Origin: an uncultured Lachnospiraceae bacterium
GTDB taxonomy: Bacteria; Bacillota; Clostridia; Lachnospirales; Lachnospiraceae
Reading direction: 5' to 3'
NCBI GenBank assembly: GCA_947174505.1
Contig: CAMWJF010000012.1
Span: forward strand, 10,607-74,606
DNA: 64,000 bases
Part shown: one piece after another, positions 6,001 through 60,623 of the stretch
Layout of the letters: each line of letters begins with the position of its first letter
How positions within the stretch are numbered: position 1 is the stretch's first letter
The notes under the pieces: generated by a model
Told to the model about the DNA's origin: nothing
The model's input: only the letters and a program-made list of their open reading frames with translations
The model's database searches: none
Program-made: the position numbers and the translations under genes

Positions 6001-6100
6001 CGAGCAGAATATCAGATTCTGCTCTGCGATCAAGAGAATTTGTGATGCTTCTTCACAAATCTTGGTTGAATAAATTGCTCATCAGAGAATTTATTCAACC
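6001..6100. repeat. Triple-hairpin intergenic element (family 2)
   Basis: Inverted repeats: GAGCAGAAT/ATTCTGCTC (6002-6024), ATTTGTGA/TCACAAAT (6038-6060), GGTTGAATAAATT/AATTTATTCAACC (6064-6100). Confidence 0.8.
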
Positions 6101-22635: not shown

Positions 22636-22644
22636 TTACAGCCT

Positions 22645-22741
22645 GTGCGGAGAATGCCTCTTTTCGGCATTCTCTCATGTGAGACTTAGAAGTTCTTTGC
22701 GAAACAGCCTTTGCTGTGAGCATTAGAACTTCTTCTCACAT
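22645..22741. repeat. Family-1 palindromic repeat, copy A (ilvB-ilvN)
   Basis: GAGAATGCC/GGCATTCTC hairpin, then ATGTGAGA-AGAAGTTCT-ACAGC/GCTGT-AGAACTTCT-TCTCACAT. Contains the ilvB stop codon. Confidence 0.9.
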
Positions 22742-24361
22742 TTTTACCAAGTCCATGGGGTCAATCAGACACTCCAGAAGCACCGATTCGTCCTTCTCCA
22801 GAAAGGCCCTGATGGTGTCCTCCGCCCCTGTCATGTCCGCCTGCCGCATAAACCGGAGGCCGAAAGCCGCAGAGAGCTTTTCCAGATCCGGGCTGCCCGA
22901 CAGATCCACCACCGAGTAGTTATCCTTGTAGGTGTAATGCTGGTATTCCCGCACCATGCCAAGATAATTGTTTTTCAGGACAATGATTTTAACAGGCACG
23001 TCAAATTGCCGCATGGTAGCCAGCTCCATCATGGACATCTGGAAGGAGCCGTCCCCACAGACCGCCACCACCTGGCGGCTTCTGTCCGCCAGCTTCGCGC
23101 CCATGGCTGCCGGAATGGAATAGCCCATGGTTCCCATACCGCCTGTGGTGAGAAAGCGCCCTTTTTTCACGATATGATAACCGCAGGACCAGATCTGGTT
23201 CTGTCCCACATCCGCCACGTAAACCGCGTTCTCGTCCATCTCCCGTGAGAGCATGGTGATAAAGGCCGCCGGGTCCACATAGGCTGGATTCGGCCTGCGT
23301 ATGGGCTGCATGGTATCGCGGTAGGTGTTTAACGTCTGTATCCACTCCTCATGCTCACAGGTAAACTCCTCCGTCTCGATATCCTCAAATATATGTTTCG
23401 CATCGCCCACCAGAGGAATGGCAGGACCTACGTTTTTCCCAATCTCCGCCGGGTCCACGTCGATGTGGACAAGGACTTTGTTTTCCGTAATCAGATCGGG
23501 CTGGTTCACCGCCCTGTCTGCCACCCGCGCGCCCACCATAAGGAGAAGGTCTGACTCATTCATGGCCCGGTTGGCGAAAGGCTTGCCGTTGTTACCCACC
23601 ATACCGTAATACATGGGATGCTCGGTAGGCATGGCGCCGATTCCCATCATGGTGGAGACCACGGGAATCCGATATTTCTCTGAGAAAGCGCGAAGACTTT
23701 CTTCCGCCTGACTAAGGAGTACGCCGCCCCCCGCACAGATCAAGGGCCGTTTTGATTTAGACAGTTCTTTTATAACCTTCTTGATCTGGGCCATATTGCC
23801 CTTTACCGTCGGTTTATACGTGCGCATATTGACCGCGTCGGGATACTTGAACTTCCCGACAGGCGTATTCTGGATATCAATGGGAATGTCGATCAGCACG
23901 GGGCCTTTACGTCCCGTTGAGGCCAAATGAAAGGCTTCCTTGAATATCCGCGGGATATCCGCCGCGTCTTTCACCAGATAGCTGTATTTGACAAAGGATT
24001 CCACCGCGCCGGTGATGTCCGCCTCCTGAAACACGTCGGAGCCGAGTAACTCGCTGTTCACCTGTCCCGTAATACATACTAACGGGATGCTGTCTGCGAA
24101 GGCTGTGGCAATACCCGTAATCAGATTGGTTGCACCGGGGCCGGAAGTTACGGCACACACGCCGACTTTTCCGGATACTCTGGCAAGGCCGCTGGCCGCA
24201 TGGGCTGCATTCTGCTCTGTGCGGATCAGAATTGTCTGGATATCAGACTCCAATATGCTGTTGTAAAAAGGACATATGGCTACGCCCGGATAACCAAACA
24301 CATACGCAACGCCTTCCGCCTCCAGACATTTTACGATTACATCTGCACCTATCATATACAT
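22736..24361 (-). CDS. ilvB: Acetolactate synthase large subunit
   Basis: FGYPG, EQNAAHAA, TSGPGATN, GGMGTMG and GDGSFQM...NN motifs. Confidence 0.96.
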   Translation of the reverse strand: MYMIGADVIVKCLEAEGVAYVFGYPGVAICPFYNSILESDIQTILIRTEQNAAHAASGLARVSGKVGVCAVTSGPGATNLITGIATAFADSIPLVCITGQVNSELLGSDVFQEADITGAVESFVKYSYLVKDAADIPRIFKEAFHLASTGRKGPVLIDIPIDIQNTPVGKFKYPDAVNMRTYKPTVKGNMAQIKKVIKELSKSKRPLICAGGGVLLSQAEESLRAFSEKYRIPVVSTMMGIGAMPTEHPMYYGMVGNNGKPFANRAMNESDLLLMVGARVADRAVNQPDLITENKVLVHIDVDPAEIGKNVGPAIPLVGDAKHIFEDIETEEFTCEHEEWIQTLNTYRDTMQPIRRPNPAYVDPAAFITMLSREMDENAVYVADVGQNQIWSCGYHIVKKGRFLTTGGMGTMGYSIPAAMGAKLADRSRQVVAVCGDGSFQMSMMELATMRQFDVPVKIIVLKNNYLGMVREYQHYTYKDNYSVVDLSGSPDLEKLSAAFGLRFMRQADMTGAEDTIRAFLEKDESVLLECLIDPMDLVKM

Positions 24362-26892: not shown

Positions 26893-26918
26893 ATAGCCTC
26901 CATGTATTACTTCTCACG

Positions 26919-27539
26919 TTATTCTTCGTAGAAAACCGTATCGTCCGTATCGAAATCATCCTCCGGCGCATCTTCGCCGCTGTCTTCCCTCTCTGCATCC
27001 TCCGATTCATCTGAAGACTCTGTTTCTTCGTCCTCATCCTTCCGGTTCAGATAGCCGCCGCCAAGGAGGGGACTCTCCTCCGTGTAGGTGACGCCTTCCC
27101 CCTCGGGAATCTCCCCGTGCAGAATCATGATGATATACTGGATGCGTATATTGGTTCTGTCATAGTATTCCAGAGCCGCCTGCTCAGAACCCTCGTCGTA
27201 AGATTCCCCGTCATAAGCCGCATGGAAAAGGGCTACCGCCTCTTTCATATTCTCGTCCGCCTCATCCGCCAGACTTTCCACCGCCGAAAACTGATCGGGC
27301 ACCGTAAGCTCCGCCATCCATTGAATGTCCTCCGCAAAGGCATCCAGATACCCCAGAAGCTCGATCACGGCGGTATCGGATTCGCGGTCAATGGCATTCA
27401 TTTTGTCATTGTATTCGGCTGCCCGTTCAAAAAAAGTGTTCATATCCTCCTGATAAGCCGTCAGTTCCTCATTCTTCCCGCAGGCCGTGAGTAAAAAAGC
27501 AAAGAGCAGGGTGACGAGTATCATCTTGTATTTTGTCAA
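26919..27539 (-). CDS. Putative lipoprotein
   Basis: LLTAC lipobox after a hydrophobic signal; acidic C-terminal tail. Confidence 0.8.
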   Translation of the reverse strand: MTKYKMILVTLLFAFLLTACGKNEELTAYQEDMNTFFERAAEYNDKMNAIDRESDTAVIELLGYLDAFAEDIQWMAELTVPDQFSAVESLADEADENMKEAVALFHAAYDGESYDEGSEQAALEYYDRTNIRIQYIIMILHGEIPEGEGVTYTEESPLLGGGYLNRKDEDEETESSDESEDAEREDSGEDAPEDDFDTDDTVFYEE

Positions 27540-27616: not shown

Positions 27617-27659
27617 ACCTTTTCTTTTTAATAGAAGTCATGGAAAATAAGTGAAAAAA

Positions 27660-27704
27660 AATCGAGCGCCTGCGCGCTCGATTCAGAGAATGCTCCGCAT
27701 TCTC
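27660..27704. repeat. Tandem hairpins, second one related to family-1 hairpin 1
   Basis: AATCGAGCGC/GCGCTCGATT and GAGAATGC/GCATTCTC; the latter matches 44025-44043. Confidence 0.6.
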
Positions 27705-27727
27705 CTTGAATGGTTTATACTGTTGCA

Positions 27728-27777
27728 ATTTCCTATAGAATGAAAAAGAGCGACAGGCCCCTTCCGGCCGGTCGCCC
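27728..27777 (-). terminator. Intrinsic terminator of arsR-HMA
   Basis: GCGAC...GGCC/GGCC...GTCGC hairpin followed by TTTTTCATTCTATAGGAAAT on the minus strand. Confidence 0.65.
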
Positions 27778-27807
27778 CCTCCAGTTCCGCTATATGAATT
27801 CTGTCCG

Positions 27808-28026
27808 TCAAAACGCGATATCACAGTCCGGCTCCACCTTCCGGCACGCCTTCAGAACCTGCTTCATAACGCTCTTCTCATCCGCCCCCTCCGCGAACTC
27901 CACCTTCATTTTCTGGGTCATAAAGCTCACGACAGCCTCTGCAACGCCATCCGTTTTCGCAGCAGCCTCCTGCATTTTCTCTGCACAGTTTGCACAGTCA
28001 ACCTCAATCTGATACGTTTTTGTCAT
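27808..28026 (-). CDS. Stand-alone heavy-metal-associated (HMA) domain protein
   Basis: 72 aa with a DCANCA metal motif; ATGA overlap with arsR. Confidence 0.88.
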   Translation of the reverse strand: MTKTYQIEVDCANCAEKMQEAAAKTDGVAEAVVSFMTQKMKVEFAEGADEKSVMKQVLKACRKVEPDCDIAF

Positions 28027-32948: not shown

Positions 32949-32968
32949 GTCTTAGAACTTCTTCTCGC
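32949..32968. repeat. Family-1 repeat, collapsed copy H (proB 3' end)
   Basis: Minus strand GCGAGAAGAAGTTCTAAGAC is the left arm joined at the repeated TTCTAA. It encodes the last proB codons and the stop. Confidence 0.45.
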
Positions 32969-33821
32969 TCGCATGCATCTGCTGCACATAAAGCGGCAGG
33001 TCAAACTGTTCGTCCTTATGCGCCAAAAATAAGGTGCCGATATTCTGTCCGCTCAAAATGCGGTGGATCACCTTAATGTCCTTACTGTTGGCAATCACCA
33101 TATCCACCCCGGTGCTGCTGGCAATTTTGGCGGCCTGCAGCTTGGTTGTCATGCCGCCCGTACCCACGCTGCTCCCGGTGGACGCTTTTCCCATATTCAT
33201 CAGTTCATCTGTCAGCTCCTCCACCACCTCTATATACCTGACGTCGGGATTGGTGCGGGGATCGTCAGTGTAGAGGCCGTCGATATCCGAAAGAAGAAGG
33301 AGCGCGTCCGCCTCCACCAGAGAAGCGACAATGGCCGAAAGGGTATCGTTGTCGCCAATCTCGATCTCATAGGTAGCTATGGTATCGTTCTCGTTCACAA
33401 TCGGAATCACGCCCAGCTTAAACAGCTCCGCGAACGTATTCCGGGCATTGTAACGGTTCAGGTTATCTACAATTGTATTTTTCGTCATCAGAATCTGGGC
33501 CGCCACCTGATTATACTCGGCAAAAATTTTCTGGTAAATCATCATCAGCCGTGCCTGCCCAACCGCGGCGCACGCCTGCTTCACGGCGATAGGGTTATCC
33601 TCCTCCCGGTTCGGCAGGATCGCCTTCTCACCCACGGCTATCGCGCCGGAGGTGACGAGCACCACGTCCTTACCCATGTTTCTTAAATTGCAAAGCTCCC
33701 GCACCAGCACGTCCAGCTTCGTGTAATCCAGATCCCCGGTCTCCCTGTGCTGTAGGGAGGAGGAACCGATCTTTATCACAATCCTCTTTTTATCCGCCAT
33801 CAAGGCTTTTCTGTCTGTCAT
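32952..33821 (-). CDS. proB: Glutamate 5-kinase (no PUA domain)
   Basis: IVIKIGSSSL, VTSGAI, PIVNENDT, GDNDTLSA and GTGGMTTK. Start at MTDRK behind GGAGG. Confidence 0.95.
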   Translation of the reverse strand: MTDRKALMADKKRIVIKIGSSSLQHRETGDLDYTKLDVLVRELCNLRNMGKDVVLVTSGAIAVGEKAILPNREEDNPIAVKQACAAVGQARLMMIYQKIFAEYNQVAAQILMTKNTIVDNLNRYNARNTFAELFKLGVIPIVNENDTIATYEIEIGDNDTLSAIVASLVEADALLLLSDIDGLYTDDPRTNPDVRYIEVVEELTDELMNMGKASTGSSVGTGGMTTKLQAAKIASSTGVDMVIANSKDIKVIHRILSGQNIGTLFLAHKDEQFDLPLYVQQMHASEKKF

Positions 33822-37072: not shown

Positions 37073-37096
37073 CACATTTTCCCTTTTCAAATATAC

Positions 37097-37195
37097 CGGA
37101 GAATACCGTTTTTCAGGCATTTCCCTAAGTGAGATTTCGTACTTCTTAGCAAAGCAGCCACTGATGCTGTGCTTTAGAAGTACGAAATCTCACTT
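37097..37195. repeat. Family-1 palindromic repeat, copy B
   Basis: Perfect 20-bp arms AAGTGAGATTTCGTACTTCT/AGAAGTACGAAATCTCACTT plus a GGAGAAT hairpin. Lies 4 nt from the upstream stop. Confidence 0.88.
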
Positions 37196-37199
37196 TTGT

Positions 37200-37940
37200 T
37201 TAGCTGGAGTAGGATTCCAGGAACAGATACAGTTCTTTCTCGCTGGCCACATGCTTTCCCGCCATGATTTCCCTCTGCAGGGCGTCCGGCAGCCGCTCCA
37301 GCAGAATATCCGTATTCATGTAAAGAGTGCTTCTGTCCTCCTCGTACACCACAATAAAATGATCCGCCACCATCAGATAAAACCCCTGTGGCTCCGGCTC
37401 CTTATAATATTTACAGACCGCCACCCTGTCTTTGGAAAAGGCCGTCAGTTCGATCGTCTCAAAGCCCTGTTCCAGCTCCGATAGCGGCGGATTATCCTCA
37501 TAGGAGGACAATGCCTCCAAAAGCTCCTCCCGGTTTAATCCGATGTACATGACGGGAATTGTCTCCTCGCTCTCTGTAACGGTTCCCTTTGACAGATCCA
37601 CCATTTCCAGCAGATACCGCGTGTCCGCCGTCACCACAGGCTCTGGTGCTGCCGCCGCCTCGATTACCTGATCCTCCGCCTCCGTATCAATGAACTGCTC
37701 CTTCGCCGTCTCGTCCGTCTGCCCGCCCTGCGGAACCGGCGTCACATGGGAAACCACATCTGCCAGCTGCGATACCGACTGCCGGAAGCCGTCCGTCTCC
37801 TCCGTGCCGGTCTGCTCTGTGCCATGACGGTATCGGTGCGGATAGAAATATTCCTCCGCCTTCAGTGCGCCCCAGCCGCCGAGGCCCAGCATGACCACAG
37901 ACAATATCATAAAAAGACTGATACGTTTTACAAGCTTCAT
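37200..37940 (-). CDS. BofC C-terminal-domain-like forespore protein
   Basis: N-terminal TM helix; C-terminal YMNTDILLERLPDALQREIMAG..LESYSS resembles the BofC C-terminus. Forespore-type promoter upstream. Confidence 0.6.
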   Translation of the reverse strand: MKLVKRISLFMILSVVMLGLGGWGALKAEEYFYPHRYRHGTEQTGTEETDGFRQSVSQLADVVSHVTPVPQGGQTDETAKEQFIDTEAEDQVIEAAAAPEPVVTADTRYLLEMVDLSKGTVTESEETIPVMYIGLNREELLEALSSYEDNPPLSELEQGFETIELTAFSKDRVAVCKYYKEPEPQGFYLMVADHFIVVYEEDRSTLYMNTDILLERLPDALQREIMAGKHVASEKELYLFLESYSS

Positions 37941-47909: not shown

Positions 47910-47970
47910 GAGTTTGTGTCAAGCAACGCGCAGACACAAATCTCGCGATTGAAAATTTTAATTTTCAATC
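47910..47970. repeat. Tandem-hairpin element (family 2) overlapping the nfnA stop
   Basis: TTTGTGTC/GACACAAA (47913-47940) and GATTGAAAATT/AATTTTCAATC (47947-47970). Confidence 0.75.
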
Positions 47971-51539: not shown

Positions 51540-53209
51540 TAAAACAGACCCACTATTTTCCCGTCGTCGTCCACATCAATCCGATAGGCTGCCGGAGTCT
51601 TAGGCAGTCCCGGCATAGTCATAACATCACCCGTCAGCACAACCACAAAACCCGCGCCTGCCGACACATAAACCTCCCGCACATGCATCTCAAAGCCGAC
51701 CGGGCGTCCCAGAAGTTTCGGGTCGTCCGAGAGCGAGTACTGCGTCTTTGCGATACACACAGGCAGTCTTCCGAATCCGGCGTTCTCCAGCTTCTCTATC
51801 TGCTTTTGGGCCGCCGCCGTGTAGGTTACGCCGCCCGCGCCGTAAATCTCGGACGCCACCGTATGGATTTTTTCCGTCAGGGACAGTTCGTTTCCATAGA
51901 GCGGCTCGAAAAAGCTCTTCTTATTTTCCAGCGTGTCAAGCACCTTTCCTGCAAGGGCTGTGCCGCCCTCCCCGCCCTTCTCCCAGACTTTGGCAAGGGC
52001 AAATTCACAGTCCCTGTCCTCGCAGAATTTCTGTACATAGTCGATCTCTTCCTGCGTATCCGAAACAAAAGCATTCAGCGCGACCACAATGGGCACCCCG
52101 TATTTATGGATATTTGATATATGCTTCTCCAGATTCACGATACCCGCCTGCAGCGCCTTCATATCCTTTCTGGACAACTCTTCCTTCGCCACGCCGCCGT
52201 TATATTTCAGCGCCCTCACGGTAGCCACCAGCACCACCGCGTCTGGCTTTAAATCCGCCATCCGGCATTTGATATCAAAAAATTTCTCAGCGCCCAGATC
52301 CGCGCCGAAGCCCGCCTCCGTAATCACATAATCCGCCATCTTAAGGGCGGTCTTTGTGGCCATCACGGAATTACAGCCGTGGGCGATATTGGCAAACGGC
52401 CCGCCGTGCACCAAGGCAGGCGTATGTTCCAGCGTCTGAATCAGGTTCGGTTTCATGGCGTCCTTTAGAAGCGCCGCCATCGCACCCACCGCCTGTAAAT
52501 CCTTCGCCGTCACGGGCTCGCCGGAATAATCATAAGCCACGATAATACGCGAAAGACGTTCCTTCAAGTCCTTAAAATCCGTCGCCAGACAGAGAATCGC
52601 CATGATCTCGGAAGCCACCGTAATGGTGAAATGGTCCTCCCGCACCATGCCGTTGGCCTTACCGCCCATACCGATCACAATATTGCGCAGCGCCCTGTCA
52701 TTCATGTCCAGACATCTCTTCCACACGATCTGCCTCGGATCGATCCGCAGCAGATTCCCCTGCTGGATATGGTTGTCCAGAAGCGCCGCCAGCAGATTAT
52801 TGGCGGATGTAATCGCATGAAAGTCTCCCGTAAAATGAAGATTCAGGTCTTCCATCGGCACCACCTGGGAATAGCCGCCGCCTGCCGCACCGCCCTTGAC
52901 GCCAAAGCACGGCCCCAAAGAGGGTTCCCGCAAAGCAATGACGGCTTTTTTTCCGAGTTTGGCGAACGCCTGCCCCAGCCCCACGGTGATCGTGGTCTTT
53001 CCCTCCCCCGCAGGAGTCGGGTTGATGGCCGTCACCAGAATCAGCCGGCCCTCGGGATTCTTTCTGATTTTCTCTATGTATCCTTCCGAAAGCTTCGCCT
53101 TATATCTGCCGTAAACCTCCAGATCCTCCTGTCCGATGCCGATCCCTTCCGCCACCTCCGTAATCGGGGTAAGCGCCGCCGCCTGGGCGATCTCGATATC
53201 TGTTTTCAT
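51539..53209 (-). CDS. fhs: Formate--tetrahydrofolate ligase
   Basis: [29 protein letters not shown] and [12 protein letters not shown]. Confidence 0.98.
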
Positions 53210-53230
53210 ATGCCTCTCCTTTCAGAAACC

Positions 53231-53329
53231 TGCACGGAGCATACCGCATTTCAGGTATTCTCCCAAGTGAGATTTCGTGTTTCTTAGCGAGGCAGCCTTT
53301 GCTGCTGCGCTTTCGTAACACTTCTCACT
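53231..53329. repeat. Family-1 palindromic repeat, copy E (ftsK-fhs)
   Basis: GGAGCATACC/GGTATTCTCC; AAGTGAGA/TCTCACTT; GCAGC/GCTGC. Contains the ftsK TGA. Confidence 0.85.
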
Positions 53330-55970
53330 TTAGGATCTGTTCAAATTCCTCCGCGCTCATCAGAATCTTTCGCGGTTTTGTCCCTTCTTCCTCGCCCACA
53401 ACCCCGGCTTCGCATAGCTGGTCCATAATGCGTGCCGCACGGTTAAAGCCAATCTTAAACATACGCTGCAGCATCCCGATAGACGCCTTATCCTTTTCAA
53501 TGATAAACCGGCCCGCCTCCGCAAAGTACTCGTCATAGGCCGACTCTGCGTCACCCGCTCCGCCGGACGTCCCCGGCGTGCCCGACTCTACCGCGATACT
53601 GTTAATCTGTTCTTCCACCGCCTCGTCAGCCGTGACCTCAGGCGCATAGTCCTTCAAAAACTCTACCACATTTGAAACTTCGTCATCCGAAACAAAAGGG
53701 CCCTGAATACGGGCAGGCTTCGGATACCCCTGCGGATAAAAAAGCATGTCTCCCTTGCCGAGAAGCTTCTCCGCCCCCACCATATCCAGAATCGTGCGGG
53801 AATCCACACCGCTGGACACCGCAAAGGCCACACGGCTTGGCATATTCGCCTTGATCAGACCCGTGATCACGTCCACGGAAGGACGCTGCGTGGCTATAAT
53901 CAGATGGATGCCGCAGGCTCTCGCAAGCTGCGCCAGACGGCAGATGGATTCCTCCACTTCTCCCGGCGACACCATCATCAGATCCGCCAGCTCGTCCACA
54001 ATAATCAAAATCTGCGGCATCTTTTCCGGCGCATTTGGGTCACCCGAAGTTTGCATACTCTCCACTTTTTTGTTATAGCCCTTCAAATCGCGGACATTGA
54101 AATCCGCAAACTTTTTATAGCGCTCCGTCATTTCCGCCACACCCCAGTGCAGGGCCGCCGCCGCCTTCTTCGGGTCTGTCACCACCGGAATCAGCAGATG
54201 GGGAATGCCGTTATAAACGCTCAGCTCCACGACCTTGGGATCAATCATAATCATCTTCACGTCATTCGGATGGGCCTTAAACAAAATACCCATGATGATC
54301 GTATTGATGCAGACAGACTTACCCGACCCGGTTGCACCCGCAATCAGCAGATGGGGCATCTTCGCAATATCCGCAAGCACAGTCTTGCCGCCGATATCCT
54401 TGCCCACCGCAAAGATCAGGTTTGCCTGGAATTTATCAAACTCCGGCGACTCCACCAGATCCCGGAAAGGCACCGCCGTATTTTCTTTATTCGGCACTTC
54501 AATGCCCACCGCCGCTTTTCCGGGAATGGGCGCTTCGATACGGATATCCGTGGCCGCCAGATTCAGCTTGATATCATCCGCAAGCCCCACAATCTTACTG
54601 ACCTTGACGCCCTGCTCCGGCTGCAGCTCATAGCGGGTGACGGACGGTCCCCTGCTGTACTGTGTGACACTCACCTTTACACCGAAATTACCAAGAATCT
54701 GTTCCAGGCGCTGCGCCGTCTCCTTAAGCTCCCTGTCGGAGTCCGCTCCCTTCTTTTTCTTCTGCGGCGCCAGAAGATCCGGCGTGGGAAAACGGTAGCG
54801 GTCCCGCCCGCCCTTTCCGGCAGAAGCTGCCGCCCGCTCCTCCTGCTGCGCCGGGCTGCTTACCGCCGACACACGCTCCCTTCCGGGCGTTTGGGCCATC
54901 TGATTGCCCGTCATCGGCTGGTAGGAATCCATGGGCTTCTTTGCCTGTGAAGATATCGAAACAGGCTCTGGCTCCTGTACCGGCTCTTCCTCCTCCATAT
55001 AGATCTCACTTAACGCATCGGATTCCTGCTCTATGTAATGATAGGAATGCTGTTCTCTTTCTCTTACCGGCGGCAGCTCTTCCGTATCCTCCTCGTCATA
55101 ATTTAACGTAATCTCATGGATATCGTCCCGCACCTTCTCGGCGGCCGCCCGCTCCGGCTCCCTGCCAAGAGCCGTATCCAGCATGACGCCGGACACCTTT
55201 TTGTCCATGCGGAGAAGCTTTTCATTTTCCAGCTCCTCCTCACGCTGTCTGCGTTCCCTGGCTTCGCGCTCCCGCCTTTCGGACTGTTCCTCCCGGCGTC
55301 TGGCCGCCCGCTCCCTGCGGTAAGCCGCGTCCTCTAAAGATCGTTCGTACACCTTCCGTCCCCCGGCCGCCACGCCCCCGATAAAGGACTTCTCCGTGAC
55401 GATCACCAGACAGATGATGCCCAAAACCAGAATCAGGAGCACCGTGCCCACCGTGCCCAGAAATTTGCAGGACAGATAGGTAAACGACCCGGCAATGATG
55501 CCGCCGCCCGTATGTCCCTCACTGCAGCGGGCGTAAATCTCAGCAATCTGATAACTTTCCGCCCCGGCCGGATTCGCACTGAAAAACTCGAAGCTCATAC
55601 CCAGCAGAATGAAAAACAGAATGCCCGCCGCCAGCTTTCTCGTCGCAATATGATTTCCCGCATTCAACATGCCGAATGCGACCATCAGAAAAATAATGAC
55701 TGGCGCCACATAGGCAAGAAGACCGAAAATGCCAAACATTACGCTGCTGACCGCACTGCCGAACTTACCCACCAGCCCGAAATTGCACAAAAATAAAATA
55801 AGGGCGAGAGCCGCCAGCACAATCAGCAGAATTTCATTTCTGACAGCAGGATCCATTGGCGCATCCTGCCTTGCGCTCCGGTTTTTTGCCCGGGAGCCTG
55901 CCGTATTTGCCCTGCCCGCACTTGTATTCTTTTTCTTCGTGGATGACCCTCTCGTACCCTGAGCCGCCAT
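53325..55970 (-). CDS. ftsK: DNA translocase FtsK/SpoIIIE
   Basis: Four N-terminal TM helices; [29 protein letters not shown] and a gamma domain. Start behind GGAGG. Confidence 0.96.
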
Positions 55971-56820: not shown

Positions 56821-56880
56821 ATGCGCTCCCTTCTTTTTTATCTTTTACTCCATTCCGAAGCATTCTGTCCTTACTATACC

Positions 56881-56912
56881 AAAAAAGAGAGAACCCTTTT
56901 TCGGTTCTCTCC
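56881..56912 (-). terminator. Intrinsic terminator
   Basis: AGAGAACC/GGTTCTCT stem followed by a T tract. Confidence 0.75.
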
Positions 56913-56945
56913 TAGTATCGCTTTATTCCATGAAATATATACCTG

Positions 56946-58421: not shown

Positions 58422-58443
58422 ACTTTTATCCTTTTCTTCTAAA

Positions 58444-58490
58444 GCGGAGAATGCCGAATTTCAGTCATTCACCTACGCGAAACTTCGTAC
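58444..58490. repeat. Family-1 repeat, truncated copy F (after metY)
   Basis: GCGGAGAATG...CATTCACC hairpin plus CCTACGCGAAACTTCGTAC, similar to copy B CCTAAGTGAGATTTCGTAC. 3 nt from the stop. Confidence 0.6.
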
Positions 58491-58493
58491 CTA

Positions 58494-59777
58494 TCACACT
58501 GATGCAAGCGCCTGTGCAAGATCCGCAATGATATCGTCGATATGCTCGATCCCCACGGAGAGTCTGATCAGCTCGGGCGCTACCCCCGCCTCTTGCAGCT
58601 GTTCGTCATTCATCTGTCTGTGCGTATGGCTTGCCGGGTGCAGAACGCTTGTCCTCGCGTCCGCCACATGGGTTACAATAGCCGCCAGCTTCAGACGATC
58701 CATCATTTTCGCGGCTGCATCCCTCCCGCCCTTTAAACCGAAGGATATCACGCCGCAGGTACCGTCCGGCATATATTTTTTCGCCAGCTCATAGTATTTG
58801 TTTCCGGAAAGCCCCGGATAATTCACCCAGGCCACCTTCTCATGACCCTGCAGATACTCCGCGCACTTCTGCGCGTTATAACAGTGTCGCTCCATCCGCA
58901 GAGGCAGTGTTTCCAGCCCCACATTCAAAAGAAACGCATTCTGGGGCGACTGGATCGAACCCAGATCACGCATCAGCTGGCTTGTCGCTTTTGTGATATA
59001 AGCCGCCTTCCCAAATTTTTCCGTGTAGACAATCCCGTGATAAGATTCGTCCGGCGTGCACAGTCCGGGGAATTTCTCCGGGTGGGCCGCCCAGTTAAAA
59101 TTGCCGGAATCCACAATACAGCCGCCCACAGACATGGCATGTCCATCCATATATTTCGAGGTGGAATGCGTCACAATATCCGCGCCCCATTTGAACGGAT
59201 TACAGTTGACCGGCGTGGCAAAGGTGTTGTCCACGATCAGCGGCACCTGATGGGCATGGGCGAGCGACGCGAATTTTTCTATGTCGAGCACCACCAGCGC
59301 CGGATTCGCGATGGTCTCCGCAAACACGCATTTGGTATTCTCCCGAAAGGCTTTTTCCAATTCCTCCGCCGGCGCGTCCGGATCTACAACCGTGCACTCG
59401 ATTCCCATTTTCTTCATGGTACAGGTGATGAGATTGAAGCTGCCGCCATAAACCGTAGAACTCATCACCACATGGTCGCCCGCCTCACAGATATTGAAAA
59501 CGGCATAATAATTGGCCGCCTGCCCGGAGGAAGTCAGCATAGCCGCCACGCCCCCCTCCAGCTCGCAGATCTTCTGCGCTACAAAGTCGTTGGTCGGGTT
59601 CTGCAGCCGGGTATAAAAATACCCGCTCTCCTCCAGATCAAAGAGCCGCCCCATCTGCTCGGAGCTGTCATATTTAAAGGTCGTGCTCTGATAGATCGGA
59701 AGCACCCGGGCTTCCCCGTTCTTCGGCTTCCAGCCGGATTGTATACAAATTGTCTCTTTCTTATATGATTTACTCAT
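58494..59777 (-). CDS. metY: O-acetylhomoserine aminocarboxypropyltransferase / sulfhydrylase
   Basis: PIYQSTT, YTRLQNPT, DNTFATP and HSTSKY (PLP Lys). Start at MSKS; the ORF track extension to 59828 lies within repeat G. Confidence 0.9.
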   Translation of the reverse strand: MSKSYKKETICIQSGWKPKNGEARVLPIYQSTTFKYDSSEQMGRLFDLEESGYFYTRLQNPTNDFVAQKICELEGGVAAMLTSSGQAANYYAVFNICEAGDHVVMSSTVYGGSFNLITCTMKKMGIECTVVDPDAPAEELEKAFRENTKCVFAETIANPALVVLDIEKFASLAHAHQVPLIVDNTFATPVNCNPFKWGADIVTHSTSKYMDGHAMSVGGCIVDSGNFNWAAHPEKFPGLCTPDESYHGIVYTEKFGKAAYITKATSQLMRDLGSIQSPQNAFLLNVGLETLPLRMERHCYNAQKCAEYLQGHEKVAWVNYPGLSGNKYYELAKKYMPDGTCGVISFGLKGGRDAAAKMMDRLKLAAIVTHVADARTSVLHPASHTHRQMNDEQLQEAGVAPELIRLSVGIEHIDDIIADLAQALASV

Positions 59778-59794
59778 CTTGTCCTCCACTGCAT

Positions 59795-59892
59795 GCGGAG
59801 AATACCTGTTTTTTAGGTATTCTCCCACGTGAGACTTAGAACTTCTCCGCGAAACAGCCTATGCTGTGAGCGGTTAGAAGTTCTTCTCACGT
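59795..59892. repeat. Family-1 palindromic repeat, copy G (yebC-metY)
   Basis: GGAGAATACCT/AGGTATTCTCC; ACGTGAGA/TCTCACGT; AGAACTTCT/AGAAGTTCT; ACAGC/GCTGT. 2 nt from the yebC stop. Confidence 0.9.
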
Positions 59893-59894
59893 TG

Positions 59895-60623
59895 TTACTC
59901 ATCCCAGTTGTGGTACACCGCCTGCACATCGTCGTCCTCGTCCAGAAGATCCAATGTCTTCTGCAGATTCTTGACCGCGCCTTCATCGGTCAGCTCCACC
60001 CACGTCTGGGGAATCATCGTCACCTCGGAGGAAATCGGCGTCACGCCAGCCTCCTTCAATGCCGCGTCCACCTCGCTCCACTGGTCGGGATCGGTATAGA
60101 TTTCGTAGCTGTCCTCCTCCTCGGAGAAATCCTCCGCGCCTGCGTCCAGCGCCGTCATCATCAGATCGTCCGCATCCATGTCGCACTCTTCCTTGTCGAT
60201 GATGATAAGTCCCTTTTTATCAAACATAAAGGAGACACAGCCCTGTGTGCCGATACTGCCGTTGCCCTTCGTAAAGGCGCTCCTCACATTGGCAGCCGTC
60301 CGATTGATATTGTCCGTCAGGGCGTCCACAATGATAGCCACGCCGCTTGGGCCGTACCCCTCGTAGGTGACAAATTTATAATCCACGTTTCCGCCTTCAC
60401 CGGCGGCCTTCTTGATGCCTCTGTCAATGGTATCGTTCGGCATGTTATTGGCCTTCGCCTTGGCAATCACCTGCGCCAGCTTAAAGTTATTCGCCGGATC
60501 CGGACCGCCCTCCTTCACCGCAACCGCGATTTCCCTGCCGATGATGGTAAAAATTTTCCCTTTCGCCGCGTCATTCTTTTCCTTCTTGTGTTTGATATTC
60601 GCAAATTTTGAATGTCCTGACAT
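59895..60623 (-). CDS. yebC: YebC/PmpR-family protein
   Basis: MSGHSKFANIKHKK, YEGYGPSG and DDDVQAVYHN. Confidence 0.96.
   Translation of the reverse strand: MSGHSKFANIKHKKEKNDAAKGKIFTIIGREIAVAVKEGGPDPANNFKLAQVIAKAKANNMPNDTIDRGIKKAAGEGGNVDYKFVTYEGYGPSGVAIIVDALTDNINRTAANVRSAFTKGNGSIGTQGCVSFMFDKKGLIIIDKEECDMDADDLMMTALDAGAEDFSEEEDSYEIYTDPDQWSEVDAALKEAGVTPISSEVTMIPQTWVELTDEGAVKNLQKTLDLLDEDDDVQAVYHNWDE

Follow-up and report, generated by a model that had tools for sequence, protein, structure and literature searches.

In a mouse-gut Lachnospiraceae genome (G000), a double hairpin recurs directly after the stop codons of housekeeping genes, and several copies lie in the stretch of 64,000 nucleotides analysed herein (C12:10607-74606 of G000; hereafter, the window), where nearly all genes are on the - strand. 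What is this element, how has it come to lie between a stop codon and the ribosome-binding site that follows, and is it DNA or RNA that holds its structure in place? The best reading of the present data is a modular, lineage-restricted family of palindromic repeats of gut Lachnospiraceae, without description in the Rfam, phage, plasmid, and literature sources searched. More precisely, it would be a mosaic DNA repeat, similar to BIME and BOX elements, that is fitted to the junctions between stop codons and Shine-Dalgarno (SD) sequences in leading-strand operons. We give this reading a probability of roughly 0.6.

Several observations define the family. First, six full copies in the window were recovered as one family both by repeat finding and by a covariance model (CM), all on the - strand; the CM was built from these six copies and scores them at 84-115 bits (E 1e-16 to 1e-23). 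The eight copies listed in the initial annotation are all real, six of them full and two collapsed, and a 25-nt footprint and one + strand variant have been found besides (Table 1). The single orientation relative to transcription that it had described is also observed, as all eight are sense and the window genes lie nearly all on the - strand. The upstream genes were confirmed using NCBIfam as ilvB, proB, rlmH, fhs, ftsK, an O-acetylhomoserine sulfhydrylase gene, and yebC, and the element indeed supplies the stop codons of ilvB, ftsK, and proB, as had been proposed: a TGA falls within the GTGAGA of the copy in ilvB (22736-22738) and in ftsK, and the proB fragment contributes five codons and the TAA of TTCTAA. 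In the related genome G004, proB ends in ...MHAH* without this fragment; in addition, contig C11 of G004, orthologous to the window around ~32950, contains ~1 kb of extra coding sequence directly 3' of proB that is missing from G000. The TAG of rlmH and the TAA of fhs are the element's own Y-A-R triplet, the copy at 37089..37200 follows a TAA stop that lies 1 nt ahead of its CAAA-GTGAGA start, and the yebC copy reads TAA plus CAAC-GTGAGA ... CTCCGCATGCAGT plus GGAGGACAAGATG.

Table 1. Copies and remnants of the repeat in the window, in order of position.
Position	Strand	Feature	Support
22640..22746	-	Full copy (HP1, HP2, and tail), ilvB/ilvN junction	CM 112 bits
26897..26921	-	Footprint TAACGTGAGAAGTAATACATGGAGG, extreme 5' and 3' unit ends only, between two genes	25 nt
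27655..27714	+	Variant copy TAA-GTGAAA, alternative first hairpin, HP2	CM 22.6 bits, E 0.005
32951..32972	-	Collapsed 22-nt 5' fragment GCGAGCGAGAAGAAGTTCTAAG, proB end	Sequence
37089..37200	-	Full copy, different HP1 subfamily (GTGAGATTTCGTAC...)	CM 98.8 bits
44015..44132	-	Full copy 3' of rlmH	CM 84 bits
51439..51544	-	Full copy 3' of fhs (formate-THF ligase)	CM 109.8 bits
53227..53335	-	Full copy 3' of ftsK	CM 107.8 bits
58437..58504	-	Collapsed copy, HP1 fragment and HP2 variant	nhmmer partial hit; CM 31 bits, E 6e-5
59788..59897	-	Full copy 3' of yebC	CM 114.6 bits

Second, the unit is modular. It measures ~105-137 nt and, read in the sense of the gene, begins with Y-A-R-N, which is very often the host gene's own TAA or TAG stop codon. 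This start is followed by a long bulged hairpin of 65 nt (HP1; GTGAGA-AGAAsTTCT...AGAAsTTCT-AAG-TCTCAC), of which several subfamilies exist, by a short hairpin of 28 nt on its 3' side (HP2; GGAGAAURCC-loop-GGYAUUCUCC), and by a tail GYAYGRA, after which come the ribosome-binding site and start codon of the next gene. HP1 is occasionally doubled or carries an additional mini-hairpin, such as the 16-nt GTCTGCTACGCAGAC within the AAG bulge of the rlmH copy, and an optional third hairpin (HP3) is followed by ATGGAGG in tandem arrays. The combinations observed comprise the HP1 subfamilies, HP1 alone, HP2 alone, doubled HP1, the extra mini-hairpin, HP3 linkers, and tandem arrays of 131-137 nt. The collapsed copy at 58437..58504, 3' of the O-acetylhomoserine sulfhydrylase gene, combines an HP1 fragment with an HP2 variant (GGTGAATGAC...GGCATTCTCC), and G004 keeps only CTCTCCGCTTTA there. 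The + strand variant pairs ATCGAGCG..CGCTCGAT as its first hairpin and CAGAGAATGC..GCATTCTCC as HP2, and the same alternative hairpin plus HP2 is present in G004 3' of rlmH. This variant sits in the spacer of a divergent gene pair, upstream of an ORF of 100 aa (27710-28012), and a 4-codon mini-ORF (ATGGAAAATAAGTGA; window 27620-27714, + strand) precedes it, the TGA of which is the element's GTGA.

A complete unit of 137 nt, from TAG to GGAGG, is presented by the three-unit tandem array L098, in the order TAG-N, HP1, HP2, GCACAGGTTTGA, HP3 (AATTCCGC..GCGGAATC), ATGGAGGT, and the next TAG. Directly 3' of HP3, ATGGnGGT-TAG-n-GTGAGA was found in 14 of 19 cases, and the TAR triplet thus belongs to the repeat itself. 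A conserved ORF was not found inside the unit, and 137 nt is not a multiple of 3. Arrays of two to three units with a period of 131-137 nt also occur in other genera of Lachnospiraceae (G273 C3:113341-113711 and C48:18015-18258; L098 1573-1972), and array formation is thus a trait of the family. A second repeat family, with GATTTGTG...CACAAAT hairpins, lies on the - strand at window positions 6038-6100 and 47910-47970. It starts with GATTTG, a motif common to the tail and third-hairpin region of the stop-docked element, of which some G000 copies read GCACAGATTTGTGCC..., and this second family possibly represents one more module of the mosaic.

Third, the family is abundant in its host and restricted in its distribution. 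The initial annotation had expected a highly multicopy element, and in G000, a 4.26-Mb draft of 151 contigs from a 94%-complete metagenome-assembled genome (MAG) in which repeated genes are possibly missing, 143 copies were detected using nhmmer (117 of full length) and 133 using the CM. These copies are spread over at least 60 contigs amid ilvB, ftsK, fhs, proB, and other housekeeping genes with no cassette array, a context on which integron attC sites were rejected. The CM matched 21 of 24 congeners, with 0-133 copies per species, and about 12 of 250 Lachnospiraceae genera, each represented by one genome; no match was obtained in any of 16 other families of the order. The carriers identified by pattern scan are mouse- and rodent-gut Lachnospiraceae, including MGBC MAGs, Acetatifactor sp., Parablautia muri, and strain 1xD42-87. 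The family had not been recognised as a named one, and Rfam agrees: no hits were obtained at the gathering threshold for the window, nor at E<=1 for the six copies (Rfam 15). The phage and plasmid collections searched contained no match to the element, and the searched literature contained no description of this repeat family. Four G000 copies (C30:31135, C68:12179, C32:20359, and C85:3618) have a longer upstream flank, GGAGCnGTCAAAGGnTAR, in common and are probably either paralogous gene ends that each carry a copy or a longer composite repeat.

Fourth, the position of the element relative to genes is precise. In 100 of the 117 full copies, the 5' end coincides with the end of a same-sense ORF that spans 80 codons or more, compared with 17% at random positions, and the pattern greatly exceeds what chance would give. 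On a crude gene map of G000, 89 copies between co-directional genes are sense and 1 is antisense, 15 further copies lie 3' of the upstream gene in convergent pairs, and ~10 appear divergent, part of them through gene-call errors. The location at 3' gene ends and the orientation bias noticed in the window therefore hold genome-wide. Relative to GTGAGA, the stop codon occurs at register -4 (TAR-N-GTGAGA) in 39 copies, at -7 (TAA-CAR-N-GTGAGA) in 19, at +1 (TGA inside GTGAGA) in 20, and at +14 (TAA of TTCTAA) in 7, and these registers recur at about 78 loci of other species. Of about 100 genes, at least 27-66 have a stop codon encoded by the repeat. In the 5' context, position -3 is A in 94% of copies, position -2 is always a purine, and position -4 is C or T; the last codon before the stop shows a weak excess of GAA/GAG, and no stronger extended target motif was found upstream. 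On the other side, an SD sequence and start codon lie no more than 95 nt from ATTCTCC in 75 of 110 copies (median 33 nt). More than half of the copies are located in co-directional spacers of no more than 40 nt, which make up 2.4% of intergenic bases, an enrichment exceeding 20-fold. This enrichment may in part be a survival effect, in which imprecise deletion at tight junctions is lethal and copies in long spacers are simply lost. The spacers of convergent pairs that hold copies are likewise tight, so these pairs do not separate targeting from survival.

The element is also biased toward one replication strand: 90 of 97 elements lie on the G-rich strand, compared with 78% of genes, and tight junctions on the lagging strand represent ~11% of the background and only 1-2 of the 65 junctions that carry an element (p 0.006-0.03, varying with window choice). 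This evidence is modest, and leading and lagging strands were assigned by local GC skew in a draft assembly. The element thus tracks transcription and the leading-strand sequence, i.e. the lagging-strand template, in agreement with single-strand (HUH-type) insertion, the link of which to the lagging-strand template is established for IS200/IS605. A preference for core operons with high expression would produce the same bias just as well.

Fifth, the hairpins are maintained by compensatory change. The covariation of the arms between copies had been pointed out in the window, and this observation was correct and strong: in an alignment of 107 copies drawn from many species, 97% of cells are paired, compensatory double changes occur in 27 of 32 pairs, and none of 500 shuffles matched the observed pairing, which drops to 37-51% in slid registers. 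The hairpins begin 1-4 nt past the stop and reach -42 to -52 kcal/mol (z -5 to -9); the ilvB copy, for example, folds as RNA at -45.6 kcal/mol (z -7.3). Is this structure selected as RNA? A host-selected intercistronic RNA element, kept as useful because it acts as an exonuclease barrier, a processing site, or a de-coupler setting cistron ratios, would account for the strict sense orientation and the site right at the stop, for the very stable folds, for the conserved unpaired bases and asymmetric AAG bulge within the element, and for the better conservation of some orthologous copies compared with their flanks or spacer; effects of REPs near stops and of 3'-end stem-loops are known (background cited in PMC3049150). 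The counts of stem mismatches speak against it, with 50 G·U and 59 A·C, and folding is no less favourable on the antisense strand than on the sense strand (-47.1 vs -45.6 and -55.0 vs -52.4 kcal/mol). Selection on a fold in mRNA would be expected to let G·U stand and to remove A·C, and the near equality of the two points to a DNA palindrome, a propagation hairpin, or templated correction or conversion. Judging from these counts, the constraint on the stems looks to be at the DNA or propagation level rather than selection on the sense RNA. Moreover, there are 0-133 copies among the species of one genus, no site is deeply conserved, the same operons show a bare stop-SD junction in most congeners, and copies collapse without evident harm. 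We therefore consider a host-selected RNA element rather unlikely. The structured-RNA system suggested in the initial annotation is thus weakened as a reading.

The stems also bear on whether the element is a chromosomal DNA site with a host function, either a polar, leading-strand-biased protein-binding site or a terminator or attenuator lacking a U-tract. BIMEs serve as binding sites of gyrase and IHF, and Watson-Crick-only palindromes, conserved unpaired positions, and a leading-strand bias exceeding that of the genes themselves would all suit a DNA site of this kind; we know of no candidate binding protein. The distribution is patchy among close species, where empty orthologous sites are common. 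Termination is at odds with the context, as no U-tract was found 3' of the hairpins and the next genes lie within about 30 nt, so that it would be polar on housekeeping operons. The initial annotation had already argued from the lack of a U-tract that these are not intrinsic terminators; HP2 is followed by GYAYGRA and then by the SD sequence and start codon, and an intrinsic terminator was rejected on these grounds. A real terminator in the window looks different: at 56877-56927 (- strand), a genuine intrinsic-terminator-like hairpin, GGAGAGAACC-GAAAAA-GGTTCTCTC, is followed by TTTTTT. The stem of this hairpin resembles HP2, which hints that HP2 may be derived from a terminator stem. Taken as a whole, a DNA site with a host function appears very unlikely.

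Sixth, orthologous junctions compared in four sister species were found to be empty (TAA|GGGAGAG..ATG), filled, swapped, or collapsed. The yebC junction is empty in G003 (TAA|GGGAGAGAAATGATG), G044 (TAA|AGGAGAG..), and G045 (TAG|GAGACGG..), and comparison with the filled site indicates a clean insertion between stop and SD without duplication; at the same site, G004 has two long hairpins of different subfamilies. The ilvB junction is empty in G045 (GTATAA|AGGAGGATAACGTG), as are the sites orthologous to 37089..37200 in G045, G003, and G044. At fhs, G000 and G044 carry the element, G045 and G003 lack it, and G004 retains a remnant, and the rlmH site in G004 has a different first hairpin and the same HP2. 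At the 26897..26921 footprint, the orthologous G004 junction holds a full copy of 109 nt. In the ftsK/fhs region, no element is present in G045, G003, and G044, where the two genes overlap (ATGAAAACTGA) and the SD lies inside ftsK (L197-L205 compared with window 53209-53335); this overlap is the ancestral state. In both G000 and G004, insertion has separated ftsK from fhs and shortened or altered the FtsK C-terminus, and a GGAGAGG SD is now located 3' of the element. Both hairpins are present at this site in G000, HP2 alone in G004, and HP1 alone in G021, and the G004 junction (AGTGAGAATAC) is that expected from deletion between GAGAA direct repeats.

Both empty and filled sites thus exist in sister species, and a systematic comparison of left and right flanks, in which flank matches equalled the control, revealed no target-site duplication (TSD). 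A MITE of the DDE type was rejected, as there is no TSD, the insertion is clean between TAA and GGAG, and the ends GnGAGAA...TTCTCC are internal hairpin arms rather than clear terminal inverted repeats (TIRs). In metagenome contigs of strains 93-97% identical, no insertion event within one species was seen: copies were present at both sites examined, including fhs, and the single change was a 44-nt internal deletion in the ftsK copy of strain X4. Between G000 and G044, the fhs copies share 90.6% identity, compared with ~80% for the coding flanks, with one pair changed on both sides, and indels abound in the adjacent spacer of the most diverged strain, in which the element is almost intact. This conservation relative to the flanks and spacer suggests constraint in place, and homogenisation among the ~130 copies could explain it too. 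The element behaves as a DNA palindrome of the REP/BIME/BOX kind that is gained and lost, and it is probably mobile.

What might have moved it? The initial annotation had linked the repeat to HUH (RAYT) transposases, and this link has not been borne out. No Y1_Tnp/RAYT domain (PF01797) was detected in the G000 MAG, with the control positive in 6 of 14 reference genomes, and among the draft MAGs of relatives Y1 was present in 7 of 23, with no relation to copy number. It is absent from G000 (133 copies), G003 (32), G024 (38), G130, and G294, yet G023 and G018 (0 copies) and G006 (1) possess it. The 1.5 kb on either side of every Y1 or TnpB gene contain no copy, and no multicopy transposase was found among the multicopy proteins assembled in G000. 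The arrays are direct, with no inverted doublets of the REPIN type, and the 5' context is Y-A-R-N-GTGAGA, with no GTAG-type tag. The REP/REPIN-like part of the earlier proposal therefore holds for the REP/BIME-type life style and fails for the REPIN-type inverted doublets, which were never seen. Three TnpB-like ORFs (PF07282) were observed in G000 (C1:43935, C17:25052-26356, and C3:133914-135614), with no TnpA in the assembly; two of these are ~77% identical over 2 kb and have right ends structured in the way typical of omega-RNA regions. A TnpB-only IS as the parent was rejected, as its ends are unrelated to the element.

A REP/RAYT system or an IS200/IS605-derived (PATE) system would need its Y1 HUH transposase to be missing from the incomplete assembly or to have been lost after a burst of insertion. 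Subterminal hairpins, a short 5' context, and a lagging-strand-template bias are hallmarks of single-strand HUH transposition, and the element indeed has subterminal hairpins, a short conserved 5' context, and its top strand on the lagging-strand template, with no target-site duplication. In addition, Y1 genes are present in the relatives G004, G044, G273, and G280, and the TnpB-only IS copies indicate that the lineage has hosted IS200/IS605 elements. Against these points stand the distribution of Y1 relative to copy number, the distance of the copies from Y1 and TnpB genes, the lack of REPIN doublets and GTAG-type tags, and the unrelated ends of the TnpB IS, and we consider such a system quite improbable.

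The preferred reading, a mosaic DNA repeat of the BIME/BOX kind, rests in part on comparison with known families. BOX repeats of Streptococcus pneumoniae (boxA-boxB(n)-boxC) are also modular, with ~100-200 nt, ~100 copies, and a variable number of hairpin modules, are co-transcribed with their neighbours, and are without an established mobilising enzyme. In pneumococcus, 36 CDSs take their stop codon from a BOX repeat (PMC3049150), and the present element provides that of at least 27-66 genes out of about 100. The two have no apparent sequence relationship, and the element described herein belongs to Lachnospiraceae and differs in its 89:1 polarity, fixed stop register, tight operon junctions, immediately following SD sequence, and lack of evidence for TIRs or TSDs. 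REP/BIME and REPIN-RAYT elements of Enterobacteria and Pseudomonas are likewise extragenic palindromes 3' of genes or inside operons that form mosaics and tandem arrays without target-site duplication, and both systems apparently need a DNA-level hairpin; however, the present family has no RAYT and no GTAG-type tag, its pairs are direct rather than inverted, its units are longer (105-137 nt vs palindromes of 20-40 nt), and its docking to stop codons is much tighter.

Mycobacterial MIRUs are intercistronic in operons, with ends arranged to preserve flanking translation, and insert with minimal effect on expression (PMC12548453). A MIRU preserves translation through an ORF of its own that overlaps the start and stop codons on either side, whereas the element herein brings stops, hairpins, and SD context; a MIRU-type repeat was rejected, as there is no conserved frame and no such internal ORF. 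The PATE likeness extends to subterminal hairpins, the lack of TSDs, insertion beside a short specific stretch, and a link between orientation and replication strand. PATEs insert 3' of a fixed target of 4-5 nt; here the target would be TAR/stop with a weak extended motif, the strand bias is modest, no TnpA is present in G000 or in most copy-rich genomes, and the ends of the resident TnpB IS are dissimilar. As far as our searches tell, the kind of repeat is known and the family itself is without description in the sources searched, and what distinguishes it is the set of near-absolute polarity, fixed stop register, stop-to-SD cassette, Watson-Crick-only stems, no TSD, and no RAYT.

Herein, we propose a scheme to describe how such a repeat might spread and persist. 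The 5' end offers stop codons in two frames (TAR, TGA, TAA), and an SD sequence would be abutted or brought at the 3' end; upstream termination and downstream initiation would thus be left intact, and the element would be tolerated in housekeeping operons. Spread would follow a hairpin-dependent route without target duplication, in which a DNA-level hairpin, single-stranded on the lagging-strand template, would be recognised by a putative trans-acting enzyme. Alternatively, the stems might be kept up by intrastrand templated correction or conversion. Decay would occur by internal deletion between the element's own GAGAA repeats. Once co-transcribed, the hairpins would be expected to affect termination, decay by 3' exonucleases, and coupling; their start 1-4 nt past the stop makes such effects on termination, mRNA decay, and coupling likely, and the effects on ribosome stalling and mRNA stability that had been suggested are plausible for this element. 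A bolder version of this scheme, which we regard as rather doubtful, is a new route of stop-codon installation. In other words, a cassette with its own stops and SD context would be copied between the stop and the next ribosome-binding site on the lagging-strand template and in gene orientation, either by a new hairpin-specific enzyme or by transposase-free template switching at TAR...GGAGG microhomology, and the copies would adjust how strongly adjacent cistrons are expressed relative to one another.

The Lachnospiraceae hold a dominant place among gut commensals, and their genomes, known for the most part as MAGs, have a repeat content that is essentially undescribed. In these genomes, the repeat breaks assemblies and distorts gene calls, as seen in ilvB, ftsK, and proB, where stops or C-termini are supplied by the repeat, and it rewires operon junctions, for example by separating the once-overlapping ftsK and fhs. 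It could serve as a marker for strain typing, and it offers a clean system for studying how palindromic repeats arrive at such exact sites when no RAYT is at hand. Should the docking mechanism prove new, a stop-codon-targeted class would be added to bacterial mobile DNA.
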